From an uncultured Gammaproteobacteria bacterium (GTDB taxonomy: Bacteria > Patescibacteriota > Patescibacteriia > 2-01-FULL-39-33): a DNA stretch of 42,719 nt. The position numbers and the translations under genes are program-made. Shown one piece after another: positions 4,177 to 42,719 of the stretch. Within the stretch, counting starts at the first letter, position 1. Each line of letters starts with the position of its first letter. The stretch covers positions 1 to 42,719 of the forward strand of contig CAYLUK010000002.1 in NCBI GenBank assembly GCA_964386875.1, read 5' to 3'. Under the pieces are notes generated by a model. The model saw only the letters and a program-made list of their open reading frames with translations. It searched no databases and was not told the DNA's origin.

Positions 4177-5325
4177 TTATAATTTTCCAACTTTAATTTG
4201 TTGTCTAATTCTAGACATTAATGTTAAATAAAACTCCAAATTATTTAAAGTCGCCAGTCGCATGGCTAAGGGTTCTTTGGTTTTAAACAGATGATGTAAA
4301 TATGCCTTGGAATATTGTTTTAGATTAGTATTATTGATTGGTGATTGATCATTTTTAAACTTGGCATTAGTAATGTTCATTGTTTTATATGTCATCCCGA
4401 GAGAGCGGAGCGACCGTGGGGATCCAGTTGTATTACCACGGGATTGCTTCATCACCTTAATACTCCCTCGCAATGACGTTATTACATACAACCTCCCATG
4501 TCTCGCTTCCCGAGTCGGAATGACACAATCAAACATATCCCCCCCCCGTTTAACCGCCTCAAATATATTATCCGGCGTACCCACGCCCATTAAATATCGA
4601 GGTTTATTCTCCGGCATTATTGGCGTCAAATAATCCAAAACTCGATACATATCTTGATTGCTCTCTCCTACAGCTAAACCGCCGATCGCATAACCGTCAA
4701 AATTCAAATCAACTAACTCACCCAAACTTTTCAACCGCAAATCTTTGTATATCCCACCCTGAATAATCGCAAACAATAACTGTTTTGTGTTGTGCGTTTT
4801 TCGTTTTGCGTCGTACGCCTGCCTCGCCCACTTAGTAGTAATCTCCACGGCTTCAGCCACTTTCTGCTTGCTGTCTTTTGAACCGGGACAAACATCCAAA
4901 ACCAGTGCAATATCCGAACCGATAATTTGCTGAATCTCCAACACTTTTTTGGGCGTCAATAAATGCCGACTACCGTCAAGATGGGATTTAAATTCAACGC
5001 CACTAGGCAATATCTTTCTAATTTTAGATAATGAAAAGACTTGAAAGCCGCCACTGTCAGTCAAGATTGGCCCATCCCAATCCATCAACTTATGCAGACC
5101 ACCGGCCTTTTTCATCACCTTCATCCCTGGCTGAAGATATAGATGATATGTGTTTGACAAAATGATTTGCGCTCCCAAAGCCCGCATTTCATCAGTAGTC
5201 AAATTTTTCACTGCCGCTTTGGTCGCAATCGGCATAAAAAACGGCGTCTGAATCTGACCGTGAACCGTCTTTAATGTTCCCAGTCGAGCCTGGGATATTT
5301 TTGATTTTCTTAATAATTTATACAT
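4177..5325 (-). CDS. tgt: Queuine tRNA-ribosyltransferase carrying an in-frame repeat insertion and lacking the zinc-binding Cys cluster
   Basis: Motifs are TPFFMPIATKAAVK, ILTDSGGFQVFSL, YAIGGLAVGE, YLMGVGTPDNI, DCVIPTR and YSKAYLHHL. Length is 382 aa. Confidence 0.85.
   Translation of the reverse strand: MYKLLRKSKISQARLGTLKTVHGQIQTPFFMPIATKAAVKNLTTDEMRALGAQIILSNTYHLYLQPGMKVMKKAGGLHKLMDWDGPILTDSGGFQVFSLSKIRKILPSGVEFKSHLDGSRHLLTPKKVLEIQQIIGSDIALVLDVCPGSKDSKQKVAEAVEITTKWARQAYDAKRKTHNTKQLLFAIIQGGIYKDLRLKSLGELVDLNFDGYAIGGLAVGESNQDMYRVLDYLTPIMPENKPRYLMGVGTPDNIFEAVKRGGDMFDCVIPTREARHGRLYVITSLRGSIKVMKQSRGNTTGSPRSLRSLGMTYKTMNITNAKFKNDQSPINNTNLKQYSKAYLHHLFKTKEPLAMRLATLNNLEFYLTLMSRIRQQIKVGKL
4391..4477. 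repeat. Palindromic GTCAT...ATGAC element, copy 1 (87 nt, in-frame inside tgt)
   Basis: Termini are GTCATCCCGAG and CTCGCAATGAC, and the core is GGGGATCC-N-CCACGGGATTGC. It is related to the copies at 34742-34838 and 42094-42168. It translates as SLRGSIKVMKQSRGNTTGSPRSLRSLGMT. Confidence 0.8.
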
Positions 5326-18996: not shown

Positions 18997-19458
18997 TGTC
19001 CATGCAAATTGGATGATCGCCCAGCCCCAGTTTAAAAAACTGAAGCGGGGAGGAAAGTCCGAACACCTCTTGATGCAAATCAAGGTCGCGGTAATGGGTA
19101 ACACCCATCCTTTGGCTGGCGACAGTCAAAGAGGACCAGTTCCACAGAGACTATACTATCCAACTCCGGTTTTATTATTAAAGTATTCAATTAAAAACTT
19201 TAATAATAAAACCGGAGTTGGAGAAAGGTGAAAAGTGTTATAGTGTTTTAGAGTGAGCACGGGATATCCCCTCAAACTAAAGCTATATGACTCGGCCTCT
19301 GGCAACAGAGTGTTTGTGGTAAACTCTACCTGGTGCAATCCCAAAAACAGTGGGGAGCATGAGCTAGTCAGTAATGACTGGCCTAGATAGATGATCATCG
19401 TTTTATCTTGAGTCTTCAAGATAAAATACAGAATTCGGCTTATAGATTTGCTTGGACA
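18997..19458 (+). ncRNA. rnpB: RNase P RNA, bacterial type A
   Basis: The universally conserved GAGGAAAGTCCGAACAC lies at about 19049-19065. Other matches are ACAGAGA..., AGGTGAAAAGTG and GGCCTAGATAGATGATCATCG...ACAGAATTCGGCTTATAG, all paralleling E. coli M1 RNA. P1 pairs TGTCCATGCAAAT (18997-19009) with ATTTGCTTGGACA (19446-19458). Confidence 0.9.
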
Positions 19459-20305: not shown

Positions 20306-20707
20306 TTATTTTAATTTTTGGTCAATCGCCTCATTAACCAATTTATCCGCTTCCTTGTTCGCTTCTCGAAAAATGTGTTTGAAAGTCACCTGATCAAAAC
20401 TCTGAATCAAATTCCAAGCTTTGACAAAAAATGACGCCAAATCCTGATTTTTGACTTTGTATTTGTGATTAAGCTGTTTGACTACCAATTCTGAGTCCAG
20501 ATAACAATCCACTTCTCTCACGCCTGCTTTCTTCGCATGTTCAAGCCCCATAATAATCGCCTGATACTCGGCTTGGTTGTTGGTGGCCTCACCAATATAT
20601 TTTTTATAATTATATTTCTGATCGCCGATTTCCAAAACCGCGCCAATCCCAGCTGGCCCGGGATTACCACGCGCTCCCCCGTCAGTATATAATTTCGCTT
20701 TTACCAT
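20306..20707 (-). CDS. rnhA: Ribonuclease HI
   Basis: Motifs are YTDGGARGNPGPAGIG, NNQAEYQAIIMGLEHA, DSELVVKQL and FREANKEADKLVNEA (DEDD catalytic pattern). Length is 133 aa. Confidence 0.85.
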   Translation of the reverse strand: MVKAKLYTDGGARGNPGPAGIGAVLEIGDQKYNYKKYIGEATNNQAEYQAIIMGLEHAKKAGVREVDCYLDSELVVKQLNHKYKVKNQDLASFFVKAWNLIQSFDQVTFKHIFREANKEADKLVNEAIDQKLK

Positions 20708-22643: not shown

Positions 22644-22677
22644 GAACGACGGGATCCCTCGTTGCACTCGGGATGAC
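22644..22677. repeat. Solo half-copy of the GTCAT...ATGAC palindromic element
   Basis: The minus strand reads GTCATCCCGAGTGCAACGAGGGATCCCGTCGTTC. This shares the GTCATCCCGAG terminus and the GGATCCCGT core with copies 1 and 2. Confidence 0.55.
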
Positions 22678-26377: not shown

Positions 26378-28447
26378 TTATTTCAAAAATCTAATATCAA
26401 CAATCTTACAGCCTTTGCCCTTAGGCATGACCATCACCGGATTAAAATCTATTTCTTTAATCTCCTTAAACTGCAAGGCAAAGTCACCCAGCTTGACCAG
26501 CACTTCAGCCACGGCATCTATATCAGCCGACTTTTGACCCCGAACACCTTTTAATATTTTATAAATCTTAAGCTCGCTGATCATTTCCATGGCTTCACTC
26601 CGACTAATCGGCGCTACTCGAAACGCCACATCATTAAATATCTCGGCATAAATTCCGCCCGCCCCAACCATTACCAGTGGCCCAAACTGCGGATCATGTT
26701 TCATACCGATAATTAATTCTGTCCCCTTGACCATTTCACCAACCAGATAGCCGGAAACCGCGCCGAATTTTTTTTTCATTTTAATAATTTCAGCGCTTAA
26801 CTTCTGATCATTTTTAATATTCAGTTTAACTCCGCCGACATCTGATTTATGGACAATCTTAGCTGACACCACTTTCAAAGCAACCGGATATTTAATTTCA
26901 TTGACACACTTAATCGCTTGTTCTTTATTTTTTACCAGACAAGCCGAGTGTAGTGGAAAGCCAAGCGGTTCCAAAATGTTCCGAGCATCAGTTTCAGTCA
27001 AAGCTGATTTTTTAATAACCTTCTTAACTTTTGTATTGTTGTAATACTTTTTATAATCTTTAGGTTTAGTCATTAGTAACGGCTTATTTTTCCACTGTGA
27101 ATATTCCAACATTTTTCCCAACACCTTCACTGATTGAAGTGGAAAAGCATACTGGGGCAAAGAATACTTTTTGAAAAATGGATAATTCTTCACAATCTTG
27201 TACTCGCCCATAAAACACAACACGATTGTCTTTTTATACTGACGACTCAACTTGCCAATCACTTTGACCGTACCTTTAATGTCAGTCATTTTCTGCGGTG
27301 TCAAAACTACTGCCAGAGAATCAACATGATTATCTTTCAATACCGCTTCAATCGCCAGTCCATAACGATCCGATCCGGCATCACCCAAAACATCAACCGG
27401 ATTGATTGTACTGGCTGCTACTGGCAAAACTTTTTTCAATTTATTAATGGTCGCTGACGAAAGCTCGGCTAATTCTAAGCCGTTTTGTGGTAATAAATCA
27501 GTCAAAATAATCCCCGGACCGCCGGCATTAGTGACGACTGCCACCCGATTGCCTCGAGGCAACGGCTGAAGAGAAAACCCTTCGGCAAAATCAAAAAAAT
27601 CAGCCACGCCCTGGGCTTCAATAATTCCTGACTGGCTAAACGCCGAACTATAAGCTTGGACTGATCCGGCCAAAGATCCGGTATGTGATGACACGGCTCG
27701 CTGACCACTTTCGGTCTTGCCACTTTTCAACACAATAATCGGCTTCTTTTTTGAAATTTTACTGGCAACAGATATAAACTTACTACCATCTCGGATGTCT
27801 TCCAAATAGGCCAAGATCACTTTGGTCTTACTGTCACTGCCAAAATACTCCAATAAATCAATCTCGCCAATATCAAGCTTATTACCCATACTGACAAAAT
27901 AGCCAAAGCCAAATTTCTGGGCTTGGACCATATCTAAAATTGCCGTGCCTAAGGCGCCGGACTGGGAAAAAAAGGCAATATTACCTTGGTTTGGCGTATC
28001 AGCCGAAAATGAAGCATTAATTGGCAGTAAAGTTGAAATATAGCCCAGACAATTGGGTCCGAGCAGTCTAATCCCGTATTTTTTGATCAAACTATTTATC
28101 TTCTGTTCCAATTTCATCCCACCTTCTCCAGTCTCACGAAAACCAGCCGAGATTATGACAATATTATGACACTTTTTCTGACCACACTGGACAACCACTT
28201 GAGGCACAAATTTGGCCGGGATGGCAATCACTGCCAAATCAACTTTGCCAACAACTTTCAATATTGATTTATATGCCTTGAGGCCGGCAATCTCCTTGTC
28301 GTCCAGATTGATTGGATAAATTTTGCCACTAAATGTTTTTTGCAAGTTGACCATAATATCATTGCCAACCTTGCCCGGCTTAGCCGAGGCGCCAATAACC
28401 GCCACTGACTGGGGATGAAAAAATTGATAAAGCTTTTCTTTCTTCAT
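26378..28447 (-). CDS. Acetate--CoA ligase (ADP-forming), fused alpha/beta (CoA-binding plus succinyl-CoA synthetase-like plus ATP-grasp)
   Basis: Motifs are FFHPQSVAVIGAS.KPGKVG, LGPNCLGY and SQSGALG. There is a C-terminal ATP-grasp region, YPVALKVVS..IVHKSDVGGVKL. Length is 689 aa. Confidence 0.8.
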   Translation of the reverse strand: MKKEKLYQFFHPQSVAVIGASAKPGKVGNDIMVNLQKTFSGKIYPINLDDKEIAGLKAYKSILKVVGKVDLAVIAIPAKFVPQVVVQCGQKKCHNIVIISAGFRETGEGGMKLEQKINSLIKKYGIRLLGPNCLGYISTLLPINASFSADTPNQGNIAFFSQSGALGTAILDMVQAQKFGFGYFVSMGNKLDIGEIDLLEYFGSDSKTKVILAYLEDIRDGSKFISVASKISKKKPIIVLKSGKTESGQRAVSSHTGSLAGSVQAYSSAFSQSGIIEAQGVADFFDFAEGFSLQPLPRGNRVAVVTNAGGPGIILTDLLPQNGLELAELSSATINKLKKVLPVAASTINPVDVLGDAGSDRYGLAIEAVLKDNHVDSLAVVLTPQKMTDIKGTVKVIGKLSRQYKKTIVLCFMGEYKIVKNYPFFKKYSLPQYAFPLQSVKVLGKMLEYSQWKNKPLLMTKPKDYKKYYNNTKVKKVIKKSALTETDARNILEPLGFPLHSACLVKNKEQAIKCVNEIKYPVALKVVSAKIVHKSDVGGVKLNIKNDQKLSAEIIKMKKKFGAVSGYLVGEMVKGTELIIGMKHDPQFGPLVMVGAGGIYAEIFNDVAFRVAPISRSEAMEMISELKIYKILKGVRGQKSADIDAVAEVLVKLGDFALQFKEIKEIDFNPVMVMPKGKGCKIVDIRFLK

Positions 28448-34165: not shown

Positions 34166-34202
34166 GTAAAAAACCACTTCAGCGCGAAGTGGTTTTCTTT
34201 TT
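34166..34202. terminator. Bidirectional intrinsic terminator
   Basis: The stem pairs AACCACTTC (34172-34180) with GAAGTGGTT (34186-34194). It has an A-run on the left and a T-run on the right. It serves the small plus-strand ORFs and the minus-strand truB-tsaC ORF. Confidence 0.7.
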
Positions 34203-35496
34203 ATTTTAATTTTATTGCTCCTTGCCTTAATACAGTAACACTGCCATTGTCCACTTTGATTAAAGTGGATGGTTCGGCCGTGATCTCGCCTGCGTCAACA
34301 TAGAAATCAACCAGGTCGCCAAAATATTCTTTCGCTTCACTGGCAGTCTTAGCCGACTCTTGTCCTTCGGGATTGGCGCTAGGCGCTACCAATGGGCCAG
34401 TTTGTGCTAATATGTCAATCAACTCTGACTTATCTGGCAGACGAAATGCCAACGAGTTTGTGCCACGATGCAAATACGCAAATTTTTCATTGTCGCACGG
34501 CAAAATTATGCTCACCGGTCCCGGCCAAAAATCTTTCAAATTATCTACCGGACTAATCCCAAATAATTTCAAATCATCAATTGAGCTGACTAAAATAATA
34601 AACGGCTTATCCGGCTGTCTGGTTTTGACTTGATAAATCCTCTCCACCACATTTTGGTTTAAGGCCAGGCCAACCAAGCCATAGACGGTGTCGGTTGGAA
34701 GGATACCAATGCCACCTGATTTTAAAATATTAACCACACTTGTCATCCCGAGGGAGTGTAGCGGAGCGGAACGACCGTGGGGATCCCGTTGTATTGCCAC
34801 GGGATTGCCACGTCGGCCTTCAGCCTCCTCGCAATGACACTTGCTCAATATATTTCTCTCTACACAATCTTCAATTCTGAACTCACCCACTCTTATCCGT
34901 TCCAAATCCGCCAAATACCCACCCACGCCCAAAACCACGCCAAGGTCGCGTGCCAAAGACCGAATATACACGCCCTTGCCAGTGATCACCCTTAATTTTA
35001 AGTCTGGATATTTATAATCTAAAATTTCAATTTCTTTTATTTCCACTTTTCTGGGCTTCAGCTCGACCACCTCGCCTTTTCTGGCTGATTTATATGCCCG
35101 CCGACCATTAACTTTTATGGCGCTGTATACCGGTGGCGCCTGCTCTATTTCCCCAACAAACTTTTTCAAAACCTCTTTAATATCTTCTTCTTTAATTTCT
35201 GATTTTTTTAATTTCTTAATTTCTTGTTTGCTCCCCTCCTCATCATCAGTGGTGCTAGTCAAACCCAGACGAATGTCGGCAATATATTCTTTTTCTTGGC
35301 CCACAATTTCTGACAACTGCTTGGTGGCCTCTCGGCCCACAGCAATTACCAACACCCCCGAAGCCAATGGGTCAAGCGTGCCGGCATGACCGACTTTTTT
35401 TACACCGGTAATTTTGCGCACTTGCGCTACTACATCAAAAGAGGTCGGCCCCTTGAGTTTATAAATGGCAAAGATGGTTTTATTATATAAATTCAT
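34201..35496 (-). CDS. truB: Fused ORF: tRNA pseudouridine-55 synthase TruB (N-terminal) joined through a repeat-element-encoded linker to an L-threonylcarbamoyladenylate synthase TsaC/YrdC domain (C-terminal)
   Basis: The TruB part has KGPTSFDVV, VGHAGTLDPLASGVLVIAVG, PPVYSAIKVNGRRAY and GVYIRSLARDLG. The linker is CHCEEAEGRRGNPVAIQRDPHGRSAPLHSLGMT. The TsaC part has GGIGILPTDTVYGLVG, KPFIILV, WPGPVSIIL and LVAPSANPEGQ. I prefer the start at MNLYNK (35496). Confidence 0.8.
   Translation of the reverse strand: MNLYNKTIFAIYKLKGPTSFDVVAQVRKITGVKKVGHAGTLDPLASGVLVIAVGREATKQLSEIVGQEKEYIADIRLGLTSTTDDEEGSKQEIKKLKKSEIKEEDIKEVLKKFVGEIEQAPPVYSAIKVNGRRAYKSARKGEVVELKPRKVEIKEIEILDYKYPDLKLRVITGKGVYIRSLARDLGVVLGVGGYLADLERIRVGEFRIEDCVERNILSKCHCEEAEGRRGNPVAIQRDPHGRSAPLHSLGMTSVVNILKSGGIGILPTDTVYGLVGLALNQNVVERIYQVKTRQPDKPFIILVSSIDDLKLFGISPVDNLKDFWPGPVSIILPCDNEKFAYLHRGTNSLAFRLPDKSELIDILAQTGPLVAPSANPEGQESAKTASEAKEYFGDLVDFYVDAGEITAEPSTLIKVDNGSVTVLRQGAIKLK
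34742..34838. mobile_element. Palindromic GTCAT...ATGAC element, copy 2 (97 nt), flanked by an ACTT direct duplication
   Basis: The sequence is GTCATCCCGAGGGAG...CGACCGTGGGGATCCCG-TTGTATTGCCA-CGGGATTGCCACGTCGG...CTCCTCGCAATGAC, a nearly continuous hairpin. ACTT occurs at 34738-34741 and 34839-34842. Confidence 0.8.
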
Positions 35497-35633: not shown

Positions 35634-36905
35634 TTATCTTTCAGTTACCCAACAAAATTCTGTGCCATTAGATTTATATTGGCCTGATGACAAAGCACCC
35701 AGGACATTTTGATTCACTAAAAATAAATCTACCGCATTAACGGAACCATCGCAATTTACATCGGCGTTTGCATCACCAATATCGATATTTAGTAATTTAT
35801 TAGTTACCAGTTGAACATCAATTGCATTAGCTACCCCATCATTATTGACATCGCCCGGAACACCATTTATTGTACAATATTCTGTACTATTAGATTTATA
35901 CTGGCCTGATGGTGATCCCAACATTATATGGTTCACTAATATCAAAAGATCAACACCATTAACTGAACCATCACAATTTATATCGGCGTTTATAGTACCA
36001 ATATCAATATTTAGTAATTTATTAGCCACTAGCTGAACATCAATTGCATCAACTGCCCCATCATGATTAATATCACCCGGAACACCATTTATGACACCTT
36101 TTGCACTTTCAGCCAAAGAATGATTATAAACTTTAACTTCTTCAATTTTTCCTTTAAAATACGCGTGTTGTGCTGTGCCATTTTTTTCACCTAAAACATC
36201 CCCTATGCTTATGGTATTAGCAATAGTGCCTGGATTAGCCACTTTGACCTCATCTGCTAATGGTATTAATCGATAAGCTTCATTATTATTTTGATCTAAA
36301 TAGCGTACGGAAAGCATGGGACCCGTAAGGGAGGTATAAGAAAATATCAAATGATGCCATTGACCAGTAGCTAAACGATTTTGATCCTCATTAACAGCGA
36401 TTTGAAATTTATTATTACCATATATAACAAGTGGCAGACCGTCACTTGCCAAATAAATTCCTCGTCTTTCTTTATTACTATTAGTAAACTCAACTATTCC
36501 TTCGCCCGTAGAATTGGCCTCCCTATAAAACCAAACCGCTATGGTAAAATCATCTATATTATAATCGGTTTTAGTATATTGAACAGAATCATTACTTCCA
36601 TTAAAAATTCCCGACTTATTATACCCCGACCTCGATGATTCTTTTGCGGCAAATGTTGGACAGTGATTCGGACACGAAGCTGTTTTTGAATCAATCGAAT
36701 TTTTAAAATTACCATTAAAATTATAATAAGCAACCAAGCCATTAGACGCAGCGGCCTGACTATTGGATAAATTTCTACTTAAGGGCAAAACTGAATAAAG
36801 ACCATAACCACCAATAATTAATCCGGCGATAATAGCAGTTATGGCTATCACACCAATTGCCAGTTTGGGGCTAGTTTTTGTTCTGCTTTGTCTTTTCTTA
36901 ACCAT
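35634..36905 (-). CDS. Secreted LamG/concanavalin-like lectin domain protein with two dockerin-type (EF-hand-like) modules
   Basis: An N-terminal TM/signal sequence is present. The LamG-like region has GLVAYYNFNG...FDGS.D.V...FTIAVWF...WHHL...VKVYNHSL. The dockerin-type modules are GDINHDGAVDAIDVQLVANKLL...ADINCDGSVNGVDLLILVNHI and GDVNNDGVANAIDVQLVTNKLL...ADVNCDGSVNAVDLFLV. Confidence 0.7.
   Translation of the reverse strand: MVKKRQSRTKTSPKLAIGVIAITAIIAGLIIGGYGLYSVLPLSRNLSNSQAAASNGLVAYYNFNGNFKNSIDSKTASCPNHCPTFAAKESSRSGYNKSGIFNGSNDSVQYTKTDYNIDDFTIAVWFYREANSTGEGIVEFTNSNKERRGIYLASDGLPLVIYGNNKFQIAVNEDQNRLATGQWHHLIFSYTSLTGPMLSVRYLDQNNNEAYRLIPLADEVKVANPGTIANTISIGDVLGEKNGTAQHAYFKGKIEEVKVYNHSLAESAKGVINGVPGDINHDGAVDAIDVQLVANKLLNIDIGTINADINCDGSVNGVDLLILVNHIMLGSPSGQYKSNSTEYCTINGVPGDVNNDGVANAIDVQLVTNKLLNIDIGDANADVNCDGSVNAVDLFLVNQNVLGALSSGQYKSNGTEFCWVTER
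35652..36093. repeat. Tandem duplication of about 222 bp (two units) encoding the dockerin modules
   Basis: Unit 1 runs from about 35652 to 35873 and unit 2 from about 35874 to 36093. Nucleotide identity is visibly high, for example ATTCTGTGCCATTAGATTTATATTGGCCTGATG against ATTCTGTACTATTAGATTTATACTGGCCTGATG. Confidence 0.75.
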
Positions 36906-38171: not shown

Positions 38172-40790
38172 TTATTTCAAATAGTCTTTCAAATATTTGG
38201 CGGTTTCTGACTGGCTTTTTTTCTTGTGCCACTCACTCACAATTTCCTCCGGCGTGCCTTTAGCGACGACTTTACCACCAGCATCTCCACCACCCGGTCC
38301 CAAATCAATAATATAATCACATGACTTTATCACGTGCATATTGTGCTCAATGATCGCAATGCTATTGCCACGATCAATTAATTTATTCAACACTTCAAGT
38401 AATAACTCCACATCATGATAATGAAGTCCGACTGTGGGCTCATCCAACAAATACAATGTCTTCTTGCCAAGGGTATGGGTGAGCTCACGGGCCAGCTTAA
38501 TCCGCTGGGCCTCGCCGCCGGAAAGCGTAGTTGCGCTTTGACCCAGCTGAAGATACCCTAGACCCACCTCTTGAAGCACTTTTAATTTATCAGTAATCTG
38601 ATAAATGCCGTCAAAGAAAGGAATGGCCTCGTCAATAGTCAACGCCAAAACTTCGGCAATATTCTTGCCGGCCTTGCTGTCAGTATTTTTTGAAGATGAA
38701 TTTTTATACTTTACTTGAAGCGTCTCTCGGCTAAACCGCTTGCCATGACACACTTCACACTCCACATACACCGCCGGCAGAAAATGCATTTCAATCAAAT
38801 TAAATCCTGCACCATCGCAAGATTCGCACCGGCCACCCGGCCGATTGAATGAAAACCGCGACAAAGTATAACCCCTTTCTCTGGCATCCGGCAACTGGGC
38901 AAAAAATTCTCGAATTGGCGTGAAGATTCCGGTGTAAGTGGCTGGATTGGACCGCGGACTTCGGCCAATTGGCGACTGATCCATAATTACGACTCGGTTG
39001 ATGTATTCGGTCCCAATAATCTTGCTGACATTTTCCAGCTCTTTCCTCTCACCGTGTTTAATTTTGACTAGATTTTTATACAACGCGTCATACAAAAACG
39101 ACGACTTGCCACTACCTGATACACCGGTCACGCACACCATCTTCCGCAGTGGAATATCCACTTGGATATTTGCCAAATTATTGGCGTTAGCACCGATCAC
39201 CTTGATCACCTCGGTAGTCTTTTTTCGCCGTTTGGGAATTACAATCTCCCTTTCGCCTCGCAAATAGTCCAAGGTGAGAGATTTTTGTCGGCTATCTTTC
39301 TTGAGCAGCTCCTTGGTGACGCCAATAGCAACCACTTCCCCACCCTGACTGCCAGCCATGGGTCCCAAATCAACTAGATAGTCAGACTCCCTGATTACTC
39401 GCTCATCATGCTCAACAATAAGCACGCTATTGTTTTGATCACGCAGTGATTTTAAGGTATCAATCAAGCGGTCATTGTCCCTTTCATGCAGACCAATAGT
39501 CGGTTCATCAAGGATATATAAAGTGCGAGACAAATACGAGCCAATCTGCGATGACAGCCGAATCCGTTGGGCCTCGCCACCAGACAAGGTCTCGGCCTCA
39601 CGATCAAGCGACAGATAATTAAGCCCAACCTGGATCAAAAAAAACAACCGGTCACTTATCTCACTTACTACCGTGTCAGCTATCTCGTGTTGCCGATTGG
39701 TCATTTTCTGCTTATACTTTTCAAAAAAATCATACAATTTATCTAGTGGCAGTTGACTGACTTGAGCAATGCTTTTTCCTTCTATCTTGACTGACAATGC
39801 TTCGGGCTTAAGACGCAAGCCATTACAATCTAGACATGGCTTAATCACCCGTTGCCATTTTCTGATATATTCTTTTTTAGGCTGACCCACATTTCCTTCA
39901 ACCTGTTTCTTTTCCCAAGACTCAAGCCGGCCAATGCCATGACAGTTTTCACAAGCGCCGTGAGGACTATTGAATGAAAATAATCTCGGCTCCACCTCCG
40001 GAAATGAAAAATTATCATTGGGACAGCTCCAATTTGAAGATAATAATAATTCCTTTTGATCTTTCTGGTTCTCATGATATAAAGCGATTATCAAACCATC
40101 ACTATAGCCAAGCGCGCTTTCAATCGCTTCAGACAACCGACCATCATCATTTATTATTACTTTATCAATTACAATATCAATACTATGCTTTTTATATCGT
40201 GCCAGCTCCACCTTATTGTGCAGTGAGTGAAATTTACCATCAATTCTAGCCTCGCCATAACCAAGACCTAGATAATCATACAATAGCTGATAATATTCAC
40301 CCTTACGATCTATTACTACCGGGGACAATATTGTCACATAATCAGTCTTAAGTTCTTTGGCGCGACTTGTGACAATATCCACCATTTCATCTAAGGCCAG
40401 CTTTTCAATCTTATAATCACACTGGGGGCAAAATACCTCACCCAGCCGAGCATACAATACCCGCAGATAGTCATAAATCTCGGTCAAAGTGCCGACAGTT
40501 GACCGCGGGTTATGCGATAGTGCCTTCTGATCAATAGAAATAGATGGCGCCAAACCGATTATCTCATCTACATCCGCCGGCTTCATCTGACCCAAAAACT
40601 GACGCGCATAAGGCGACAGCGACTCAATATACCGCCGTTGGCCTTCAGCAAAAATGGTGTCAAAGGCCAATGATGACTTGCCACTGCCCGACACACCAGT
40701 AAACACCACCAGCTTATTGTGGGGTATTTCAAGGGTTATATTTTTGAGATTATGGACGCGAGCGCCCTTTATCTGGATGGTTTCTTTCAT
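38172..40790 (-). CDS. uvrA: Excinuclease ABC subunit A
   Basis: Motifs are [12 protein letters not shown] and two Walker A sites, [14 protein letters not shown] and [10 protein letters not shown]. The ABC signatures are [11 protein letters not shown] and [11 protein letters not shown]. Zn modules are [24 protein letters not shown] and CESCDGAG...CEVCHGKR. Confidence 0.9.
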
Positions 40791-41598: not shown

Positions 41599-42719
41599 TT
41601 AATTGGTGTCATTCGCATCGGTTAAATCAAGAAAATCCTCAATCTCTTTACTGATCGTCTCTGGTGTAATGCCATGTTGCTGATTGTACTTTTTCTGAAT
41701 GAGACGCCGACTTTCCACTTCTTTAAGCGCTCGTTTCATTGACCCGGTCACAGTATCGGCGTACAAAATGACCTTACCGGTCACATTCCTAGCAGCTCGT
41801 CCCATAGTCTGCATCAGTGATGTTTCACTGCGCAAAAATCCTTCTCGATCAGCATCCAAGATGGCGACCAGTGTCACTTCCGGCAAATCCAAACCCTCAC
41901 GAAGCAAATTCACTCCAATTAGAATATCAAACTTACCCTTTCTAAAATTCTTTAAGATATCAGTCCGCTCAATCGTCTTAATATCGCTATGGATATAATT
42001 TACTTTAAGTCCTTGCTTTTTCAAATATTCATCAAGATCTTCAGCCATTTTCTTGGTCAAAGTATTGACAATGATACGACCAGTTTTCTTACTGTCATTG
42101 CGAGTGGCCGGAAGGAGGGTGGCAATCCCGTTTAATTCCACGGGATCTATCGCTCTGCTCGAAATGACACTTTTAATTTCCTTAATTAAATCATCAATTT
42201 GGCTCTGGTCAGTCTTCTTATTATATACCGGCCTAATCTCGACTGGTGGATCAATCAGCCCGGTGGGTCGAATAACCTGACGAATGGGTCGGCCAGACTT
42301 TTCAATTTCCCACTTGCCGGGTGTGGCTGTCGTAAATAGAGTTTGGCCGATTCGCTGTTCAAATTCCTTGAAATTCAACGGCCGATTATCTAGCGCTGAC
42401 GGCAGACGCCAGCCATATTGGATTAAGGTTTCTTTTCTCGCTTTGTCACCGGCATACATTCCTCTGATTTGAGGCACGGCAATATGCGACTCATCAATAA
42501 TGGTCAAAAAATCTGGACTGCCATCTGCGTAACGCGGAAAATATGCCAACAGCGTATCGGGCGACTCACCCGGCAATTTGCCGGTCAAATGACGAGAATA
42601 ATTTTCAATGCCATGGCAATAGCCAAGGGAAAGCAACATCTCCATATCGTATCGTGTCCGACGCTCAAGTCGCTCGGCCTCAAGAAAAAGACCCTTATCC
42701 TTATAATATTTCAGCCTAT
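41599..42719 (-). CDS. uvrB: Excinuclease ABC subunit B, C-terminal about 370 aa. The 5' end lies right of the window. It carries an in-frame repeat insertion.
   Basis: Motifs are [41 protein letters not shown] and the helicase C region [46 protein letters not shown]. The frame stays open upstream of the track start ([28 protein letters not shown]). Confidence 0.9.
42094..42168. mobile_element. Palindromic GTCAT...ATGAC element, copy 3 (75 nt, opposite orientation), flanked by an ACT direct duplication
   Basis: The sequence is GTCATTGCGAGTGG...GGCAATCCCG-TTTAATTCCA-CGGGATC...GCTCGAAATGAC. ACT occurs at 42091-42093 and 42169-42171. It encodes [25 protein letters not shown] between two Ser (AGT) codons. 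Confidence 0.8.

Follow-up and report, generated by a model that had tools for sequence, protein, structure and literature searches.

In-frame palindromic repeats within conserved genes of a Patescibacteria genome and their relation to CGTC-tagged REPs

Palindromic Repeats within Bacterial Genes

In-frame palindromic elements of Rickettsia (Rickettsia palindromic elements, RPEs) were reportedly described in 2000–2002. They lie within unrelated housekeeping genes and are read as extra peptide, and an element with the same habit is the subject of this analysis. It occurs in a 42,719-nt stretch of DNA (the window; contig CAYLUK010000002.1 of assembly GCA_964386875.1) from a Patescibacteria member of the Candidate Phyla Radiation (CPR), with full copies inside the genes tgt, truB-tsaC and uvrB. 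The element is probably a small non-autonomous palindromic repeat, organized as an inverted dimer, that spreads without target-site duplication and is kept in genes where frame, stop codons and site tolerate it.

The closest described repeats are the CGTC-tagged repetitive extragenic palindromes (REPs), families CGTC-1 to CGTC-4, defined by Di Nocera, De Gregorio and Rocco in 2013 (PMC3733652). Their units have a CGTC tag, often TGTC (variant CCTC), a stem that starts with A-T, A-T, and a 3-nt tail that is usually CCA; stems are 8–9 bp and loops 4–5 nt (PMC3733652, Table 1). They occur mostly as inverted dimers, in five phyla, with no dedicated transposase, and in R. conorii CGTC-1 is RPE-6 and CGTC-4 is RPE-4 (PMC3733652). 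A 2024 review of MITEs (transposable elements of the miniature inverted-repeat type) only speculated about RPE-like protein modification in other prokaryotes.

A Repeat Family in the Window

The three full copies (Table 1) align with one another over their whole length; all have GTCATYYCGAG and CTCGCAATGAC as termini and GGATCCNGT...ACGGGATTGC as core. A profile hidden Markov model (HMM) built from them recovers its members with E-values of 7e-30, 4e-28 and 4e-20, and a covariance model of 24 family members scores the window full copies at 76.5, 65.0 and 51.6 bits. The terminal 11-mer, with at most one mismatch, occurs 11 times against 2.7 expected, a count reached in 0 of 100 shuffles. Each full copy folds into a long hairpin of −23 to −46 kcal/mol (z −2.4 to −3.8). 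The first-pass annotation of this DNA had proposed three full copies with common termini, core and hairpin shape; positions, model scores and folds all agree with it, and the similarity persists under alignment statistics. Both the HMM and covariance searches and the folding of each copy that it had suggested were carried out on the window. The family is real, and it consists here of three full copies and one half-copy, a single unit that has a GC-rich hairpin before it and a T-rich tract after it.

No further significant full copy was found when the window was scanned with the covariance model, nor any additional copy in the 10 kb past its end. Weak covariance-model matches at 28357–28420 and 20610–20692 are no copies: they fall in the native N-terminal coding sequence of an acetyl-CoA synthetase-like gene and an RNase H gene. 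Pairwise identity of the window copies is only 70–79%, so they look old. The window-specific core was found in no other contig of the source genome in the genome contig set and, in the metagenome set, in a related organism only. Rfam at the gathering threshold matches nothing in the window other than RNase P; at permissive E-values it matches nothing in the truB region and gives two sub-threshold matches in a related metagenome locus (L136), both outside the repeat arrays. The 33-residue truB peptide, a query too short for a census, has one match among 1.84 billion proteins, a spurious open reading frame (ORF) over a tandem array.

Host Genes and Insertion Sites

All protein genes of the window lie on the minus strand except one small ORF. 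The host frame is open throughout each of the three full copies, and each copy is read in a different combination of frame and orientation: the tgt and truB-tsaC copies are antisense and differ in frame, and the uvrB copy is sense. The encoded peptides are of the types SLRG...LGMT (tgt), CHCEE...LGMT (truB-tsaC) and VISS...TRND (uvrB), and they add 25–33 residues per host protein at loops or linkers. With the three hosts confirmed by Pfam, the earlier claim that the copies lie inside coding sequence, keep its frame open and use three frame and orientation combinations holds.

Table 1. Element copies, host genes and other features of the window
Feature	Position	Strand	Details
Full element copy, 87 nt	4391..4477	+	Inverted dimer of TGTC/CGTC-tagged units; antisense to tgt; encodes S284–T312 (SLRGSIKVMKQSRGNTTGSPRSLRSLGMT)
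Full element copy, 97 nt	34742..34838	+	Antisense to truB-tsaC; encodes CHCEEAEGRRGNPVAIQRDPHGRSAPLHSLGMT, interdomain linker
Full element copy, 75 nt, short variant, most degraded	42094..42168	-	Sense in uvrB; encodes 25 residues
Single unit (half-copy) GTCATCCCGAGTGCAACGAGGGATCCCGT	22646..22677	-	Intergenic, 24 nt past lepA stop
tgt (queuine tRNA-ribosyltransferase, 382 aa)	4177..5325	-	Pfam TGT, E 2e-139
truB-tsaC (Sua5/YrdC) fusion	34201..35496	-	Pfam TruB_N, TruB_C_2 and Sua5_yciO_yrdC
uvrB, 5' part beyond window end	41599..42719	-	Pfam Helicase_C and UvrB; full protein P0241, 641 aa
uvrA	38172..40790	-	
Short uvrC-like gene, 384 aa	37014..38168	-	GIY-YIG and UvrC RNase H-like domain
ORF, 166 aa	41027..41527	+	Between uvrB and uvrA
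RNase P RNA gene	19001..19458	+	~90 nt longer than Rfam model
AT-rich near-perfect hairpin, 64 nt	19159..19222		32-nt arms, 94% complementary; within RNase P RNA gene
Dockerin/LamG-domain gene	35634..36905		
Direct repeat, 149 nt	35722..35870 and 35944..36092		84% identical, 222 nt apart; within dockerin/LamG-domain gene

When the window Tgt is aligned with Z. mobilis Tgt, the match stops at residue 294 and resumes at residue 300, and the insert takes the place of the five-residue turn TWDGP (T295–P299), the turn of a β-hairpin. Without the insert the window protein has a six-residue turn against five in Z. mobilis Tgt, in line with the earlier suggestion that removal restores the spacing of characterized Tgt; the structural mapping that accompanied this suggestion also places the insert in a turn. 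In an AlphaFold2 model (mean predicted local distance difference test (pLDDT) score 82) the insert is coil, with pLDDT <50 at residues 286–299, and its residues are probably disordered. The aspartates aligned to the catalytic residues of Z. mobilis Tgt are invariant in the alignment, and the loop itself is 7–11 residues long in many relatives.

In the TruB-TsaC fusion protein ~29 extra residues lie exactly between the TruB C-terminal domain (end 233) and the Sua5 domain (start 271). Orthologues at 56–63% identity, of 393–409 aa, have the fusion, and all lack the segment. UvrB orthologues at 69–79% identity are mostly 608–616 aa, against 641 aa for the window protein, which has ~26 extra residues at a helix-strand junction, between the helix ending ...IKEIKS and the next strand. 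Most of the UvrB orthologues, of about 611–614 aa, are without this segment. Aligned with PDB chain 9gy7_E, the window protein loses the match between residues 440 and 443, where the C-terminal helicase domain begins. Because orthologues at 56–79% identity lack the segments, the comparison supports their being lineage-specific insertions and not native sequence; the annotation had itself pointed out that universal presence in orthologues would have spoken for native sequence. It had also called the host genes essential. They are conserved, but the term is overstated, as E. coli can do without tgt, truB and uvrB, and within the fusion only the TsaC half is essential there.

Two of these host proteins have other distinctive features. 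In Tgt residues ~326–365 the four Z. mobilis zinc ligands are absent from the window protein and from all 31 aligned CPR homologues; NNTN--LK stands in place of CxCxxC, and TEHNIAFY reads TLNNLEFY, with Asn at the position of its His. From the alignment, this loss looks like a clade trait and not decay. The TruB-TsaC fusion is native to the CPR clade, and one relative (P0146) has the reversed domain order.

Architecture of the Element

The common layout is GTCATYCCGAG - variable - GGRATC - loop - GATTGC - variable - CTCGCAATGAC. Among 122 distinct superfamily copies the unit stem covaries, ATCCC occurring with GGGAT and ATTCC with GGAAT (13/1/2/67, Fisher p 3e-12, a guide only, as the copies are not phylogenetically independent). 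A local stem in each half of the element can account for this pairing and one long hairpin cannot, which argues for an inverted dimer of two stem-loop units. The left unit is TGTC-[ATCCC...GGGAT]-CC, and the right unit is the reverse complement of TGTC-[ATTGC...GCAAT]-CC. Unit stems are 5 bp and loops ~11–26 nt, sometimes with a nested hairpin. By type, the window holds three dimers and one singleton.

A T and an A flank the termini near-invariantly across copies, so that the fuller form of the element is TGTCAT...ATGACA and each unit has an unpaired TGTC tag (CGTC in two cases). On the left, TGTC precedes ATCCC in all copies with a left flank listed; on the right, read on the opposite strand, the tag is TGTC in 20 of 22 copies and CGTC in 2, the tgt copy included. 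The tail after GGGAT is CCA in the tgt copy and CCC in the other copies, and on the other arm GCAAT is followed by CCC.

No consistent target-site duplication flanks the copies examined. The inverted termini TGTCAT/ATGACA are present, and short flanking matches, AGT at uvrB and ACTT at truB, are not repeated in the other 19 copies. A possible attractor of insertion in tgt was considered and rejected: the codons for DCVIPTR (TGTCATTCCGAC, 4513–4524, minus strand), 39 nt upstream of the insertion, are identical to the terminus at 11 of 12 positions. This pseudo-terminus is treated as chance, since it is not conserved in the other tgt that carries a copy (L118) and has no equivalent near the uvrB site.

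Relation to Described Repeats

The window element resembles the CGTC-tagged REPs in its unpaired CGTC/TGTC tag beside an A-T, A-T stem start, its short CC(A/C) tail, its inverted dimers that can also fold as one long hairpin, and its lack of an associated transposase. Singletons just downstream of genes and intragenic copies in excinuclease ABC repair genes and truB are found in both. The dimensions differ, however, with a stem of 5 bp and not 8–9 and a loop of 11–26 nt and not 4–5. The host, a member of the Patescibacteria, is outside the five phyla of PMC3733652, and the GTCATYCCGAG/CTCGCAATGAC termini recur in metagenome-assembled genomes (MAGs) labelled as many other phyla, beyond the list given for CGTC REPs.

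Likeness to the Rickettsia elements extends from habit to sequence. Rickettsia species and other Proteobacteria have many copies of the motif GGATCCCGTGG-N3-8-CCACGGGATGAC. Rickettsia elements of the form TGTCATCCCGTGGCTTGACCACGGGATCCAG - spacer - CTGGATCCCGTGGTCAAGCCACGGGATGACA, with repeats that read TGTCATCCCGTGG..CCACGGGATCCAG...CTGGATCC..GGGATGACA, have the tag, first stem bases, tail and inverted layout of the window element. What the two hold in common is the terminal unit only, TGTCATCCC...GGGATCC(A), and its arrangement as an inverted dimer. The parallel to RPEs drawn in the first-pass annotation is borne out by this unit, and the resemblance looks like kinship, not only analogy. Moreover, truB is a host gene in R. 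conorii too (PMC3733652). On the other hand, the interior sequence differs, and up to E 10 neither Pfam nor NCBIfam, libraries that should include RPE domain models, has a match to the three element-encoded peptides. The window element is also shorter (75–97 nt, against ~150 bp for the RPE-1 type; PMC10969869), and its host belongs to a free-living or epibiotic CPR lineage, whereas Rickettsia is an obligate intracellular alphaproteobacterium.

Two further classes are more distant. REPINs and GTAG REPs, served by REP-associated tyrosine transposases (RAYTs), are likewise inverted hairpin doublets with a conserved unpaired tetranucleotide tag and no target-site duplication, and each unit of a REPIN folds alone or the doublet folds as one hairpin. 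The window tag is TGTC/CGTC and not GTAG, and no RAYT or IS200/IS605-type gene was seen near the copies examined. MITEs that overlap genes, such as Coxiella QMITE1, enterobacterial RU/ERIC and Correia, are similarly small and non-autonomous and form in-frame ORF fusions (PMC10969869, PMC5896051, PMC2759123). Typical MITEs, however, have insertion-sequence-derived terminal inverted repeats and target-site duplications, whereas the window element has no consistent duplication or known parent insertion sequence.

Given that stem and loop dimensions differ and that Pfam, NCBIfam and Rfam give no match, the element is filed as a related variant and not as a member. It is placed as a new variant or family beside the CGTC REP superfamily, distinct from CGTC-1 to CGTC-4 and from any named RPE family. 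A literature search found no report of such palindromic elements in CPR, and full-text searches by terminal 11-mers and typical encoded peptides returned unrelated papers only. The earlier statement that the behavior is unrecognized in this kind of genome stands to that extent, but the superfamily and its copies in repair genes and truB were published in 2013.

Distribution of the Termini and of the Window-type Subfamily

A search through one genome per species for both termini at a spacing of 40–70 nt gave at least 119 loci, against ~4 expected by chance on a rough estimate of our own. Labels among the matches listed include CPR groups, Oscillospiraceae, Bradyrhizobium and other Alphaproteobacteria, Nitrospirota, Bacteroidota, Acidobacteriota, Omnitrophota, Rickettsiales and many others. 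Loci with the window-type core CCGTGGGGATCC...CGGGATTGCC number 18, almost all of them in two MAGs, Patescibacteria SO_2017_GW1_122 and Buchananbacteria MJ120702A_bin-902. Subfamily copies are up to 97–99% identical, also across these two MAGs. A related metagenome has fresh 79-nt variant copies in tandem arrays with a period of 112–121 nt, all intergenic, and the majority of copies of the wider superfamily are intergenic as well.

Coding context was determined for 22 copies, four from the window and 18 from related loci. Nine lie inside long reading frames, for Tgt (window and L118), UvrB (window and L134), TruB-TsaC, Pol I, QueA, Dus and MnmA. The Pol I copy is at the linker between the 5'-nuclease and 3'-5' exonuclease domains. 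The annotation had called for a genome-wide count of coding against intergenic copies; among these 22 copies 9 are genic, and every genic copy is open in its host frame.

Twelve stretches with superfamily termini were also found on IMG/VR viral contigs (L257–L268). Viral contigs could be a route of the element between hosts.

Length and Reading Frame

Intergenic copies are mostly 88 nt long. Genic copies measure 87, 87, 87, 87, 81 and 75 nt, plus 97, 97 and 98 nt. The possibility that the element is pre-adapted for coding was rejected: copies have a mean of 2.24 open frames of 6, equal to shuffled sequence. The host frame is nevertheless open in 9 of 9 genic copies. Length bias and open host frames together argue that genic copies are translated and that selection filtered the insertions that survive, because an element that was removed or spliced out would face no such constraint.

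A Model for Spread and Retention

A non-autonomous repeat of this kind would spread in the genome without duplicating its target site, presumably mobilized in trans by a factor that recognizes the tag and the hairpin while the DNA is single-stranded; GTAG REPs and their tyrosine transposases provide the analogy. A copy that lands in a gene would persist if its added length keeps the reading frame, if the frame through the element has no stop codon, and if 25–33 extra, probably disordered residues are tolerated at the site, a surface turn or a linker. Survivors would be translated within Tgt, TruB-TsaC and UvrB as near-neutral additions and then decay as ordinary coding sequence.

Several points weigh against this model. 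No mobilizing enzyme was found: no transposase turned up in Pfam scans of the window genes or in the 10 kb beyond, so mobility is read from the distribution of copies only. Three genic copies (97, 97 and 98 nt) are not multiples of 3 and required an extra compensating change. The window units fall outside the published stem and loop dimensions of CGTC REPs. The model also supposes that the insert-bearing proteins remain active, and random landing followed by tolerance does not predict restriction to tRNA-modification and repair genes.

A candidate for associated DNA comes from the related locus L136 (metagenome contig Ga0208373_1009215), where a 2.1-kb segment (183–2290) lies between inverted element arrays with ~50 nt of inverted flank. 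It contains a 391-aa ORF (565–1740), G+C-rich by eye, and a 92-aa ORF. The 391-aa ORF has no match in Pfam, NCBIfam or PHROGs. As a lead only, the segment could be mobile cargo or a partner gene.

Host-gene Bias

All nine genic subfamily copies lie in tRNA-modification or DNA-repair genes, which make up ~25% of the window coding length as summed from gene annotations. This is unlikely by chance, given probabilities of 0.25^9 (~4e-6) or, when same-site pairs are counted as one event, 0.25^7 (~6e-5). Spread with tolerance may still produce such a pattern, because tRNA-modification and repair genes are dispensable in model bacteria and mildly harmful inserts in them may drift to fixation. Countering this explanation, other presumably dispensable genes of the window (glycosyltransferases, surface proteins) are without copies.

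A different explanation is that the hairpins are retained for function, as domesticated modules and not as tolerated parasites, with an RNA or DNA structure that regulates or is recognized, or a peptide that alters nucleic-acid binding. The concentration of copies in Tgt (twice), QueA, Dus, MnmA, TruB-TsaC, UvrB (twice) and PolA agrees with this proposal, as does the repeated use of the same loops (see below). A like bias was described independently for other phyla, in which intragenic REPs are often in repair genes (excinuclease ABC complex, Pol I, recBCD) and truB (PMC3733652). Retention for function is nonetheless unlikely. At the same loops orientations, frames and even repeat families differ, which leaves no single conserved RNA or peptide; the window copies are decaying, at 70–79% mutual identity; close orthologues do without the inserts; and the Tgt insert is predicted to be disordered. 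A more specific proposal, that genes for enzymes of structured nucleic acids (tRNA modification, DNA repair) are the targets of hairpin dimers or selectively retain them, with hairpin or peptide as a regulatory or substrate-mimic module, must be considered a long shot. If true, it would explain both the same host-gene bias in unrelated phyla and the repeatedly used loops.

Recurrent Insertion at the Same Loops

Evidence for repeated insertion is most direct in UvrB, where a fresh copy (L134) sits at the same junction as the window copy in the opposite orientation. Because the orientations are opposite, these are two separate events. The Tgt loop was compared among 75 parsable CPR homologues; its basal length is 7–11 residues, and in 28 of them it has 20–75. 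At least 16 of these 28 long loops have signature end peptides of the superfamily, starting with SLRG or VIA(R/S) and ending with L(G/A)MT or (A/P)RND, in several frame combinations. On a neighbor-joining Tgt tree built with the loop left out, insert-bearing proteins are scattered among insert-free sisters. The window Tgt is sister to two proteins with 11-residue loops (P0005 and P0012), and the L118 Tgt lies elsewhere in the tree.

These results bear on the possibility of a single ancient insertion into tgt, followed by many precise losses and by sequence turnover. The window and L118 tgt copies do agree in orientation, in frame and in their left junction, which in both lies 8 nt after the Tyr280 codon. 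Such a history is nevertheless improbable in view of the dispersal of insert-bearing proteins on the loop-free tree, the different frame types (SLRG..xMT, SLRG..RND, VIA..RND) and lengths of the inserts, and the opposite orientations at the UvrB site, which mean more than one event there. Independent insertion of a spreading repeat fits this pattern, and its recurrence in the Tgt loop would reflect either a target preference or an unusually permissive loop.

In other CPR genomes a second, unrelated repeat family, with peptides of the PPL.KG, SFVRRG and GLGGG types, also occupies these Tgt and UvrB loops. Carriers are five Tgt proteins (P0004, P0028, P0036, P0003 and P0009) and two UvrB proteins (P0252 and P0244). 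PPLIKG-type peptides are at the window insertion site in P0252, and P0244 has the second family at another UvrB site too.

Two remaining alternatives deny that anything was inserted. The segments might be native, lineage-specific protein sequence with coincidental or convergent similarity in DNA, and the loops concerned do vary in length in many relatives. This explanation is highly improbable and can be regarded as already refuted, because the family exists at the nucleotide level, with ~80% identity over 75 nt between element segments of unrelated genes and profile E-values of 1e-20 to 1e-30, and because the same element lies in intergenic DNA of the window and of other genomes; different frames and orientations are used as well. 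Repeat-induced chimeras of metagenome assembly, a natural concern with a metagenome-assembled source, have a negligible probability, since the insert-bearing uvrB and tgt are present in two records (NCBI GCA_035290245.1 and ENA ERZ27254852, which may be non-independent assemblies), the truB-tsaC product recurs at 99% identity in a further ENA cluster, host frames run precisely through all three copies, and equivalent insertions are found in other MAGs.

Implications for CPR Proteins

In-frame palindrome insertion as known from Rickettsia is extended here to the Candidate Phyla Radiation. Several features appear new: the CPR host, units that combine a 5-bp stem with a long loop, termini whose phyletic range is far wider, the length filter, the recurrent use of two loops, and the replication of the bias toward repair and tRNA-modification genes. 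The comparison suggests that Rickettsia elements, alphaproteobacterial CGTC REPs and the CPR element form one very widespread group with near-invariant termini. In genomes as small and as densely coding as those of CPR such elements can make conserved proteins longer, and several other retrieved CPR Tgt and UvrB sequences also have repeat-derived segments. Where CPR proteins differ in length or have extra segments, the cause may thus be repeats and not functional domains. Recurrence at the same loops and confinement to certain host genes sharpen the questions of what moves these elements and why these genes are involved.

Other Features of the Window

The uvrB gene forms a one-strand cluster with uvrA and a short uvrC-like gene, interrupted between uvrB and uvrA by a 166-aa ORF that runs the other way (Table 1). 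The RNase P RNA gene is on the strand opposite to nearly all protein genes, and it contains a long AT-rich hairpin. A direct repeat inside the dockerin/LamG-domain gene probably encodes an internal protein duplication.

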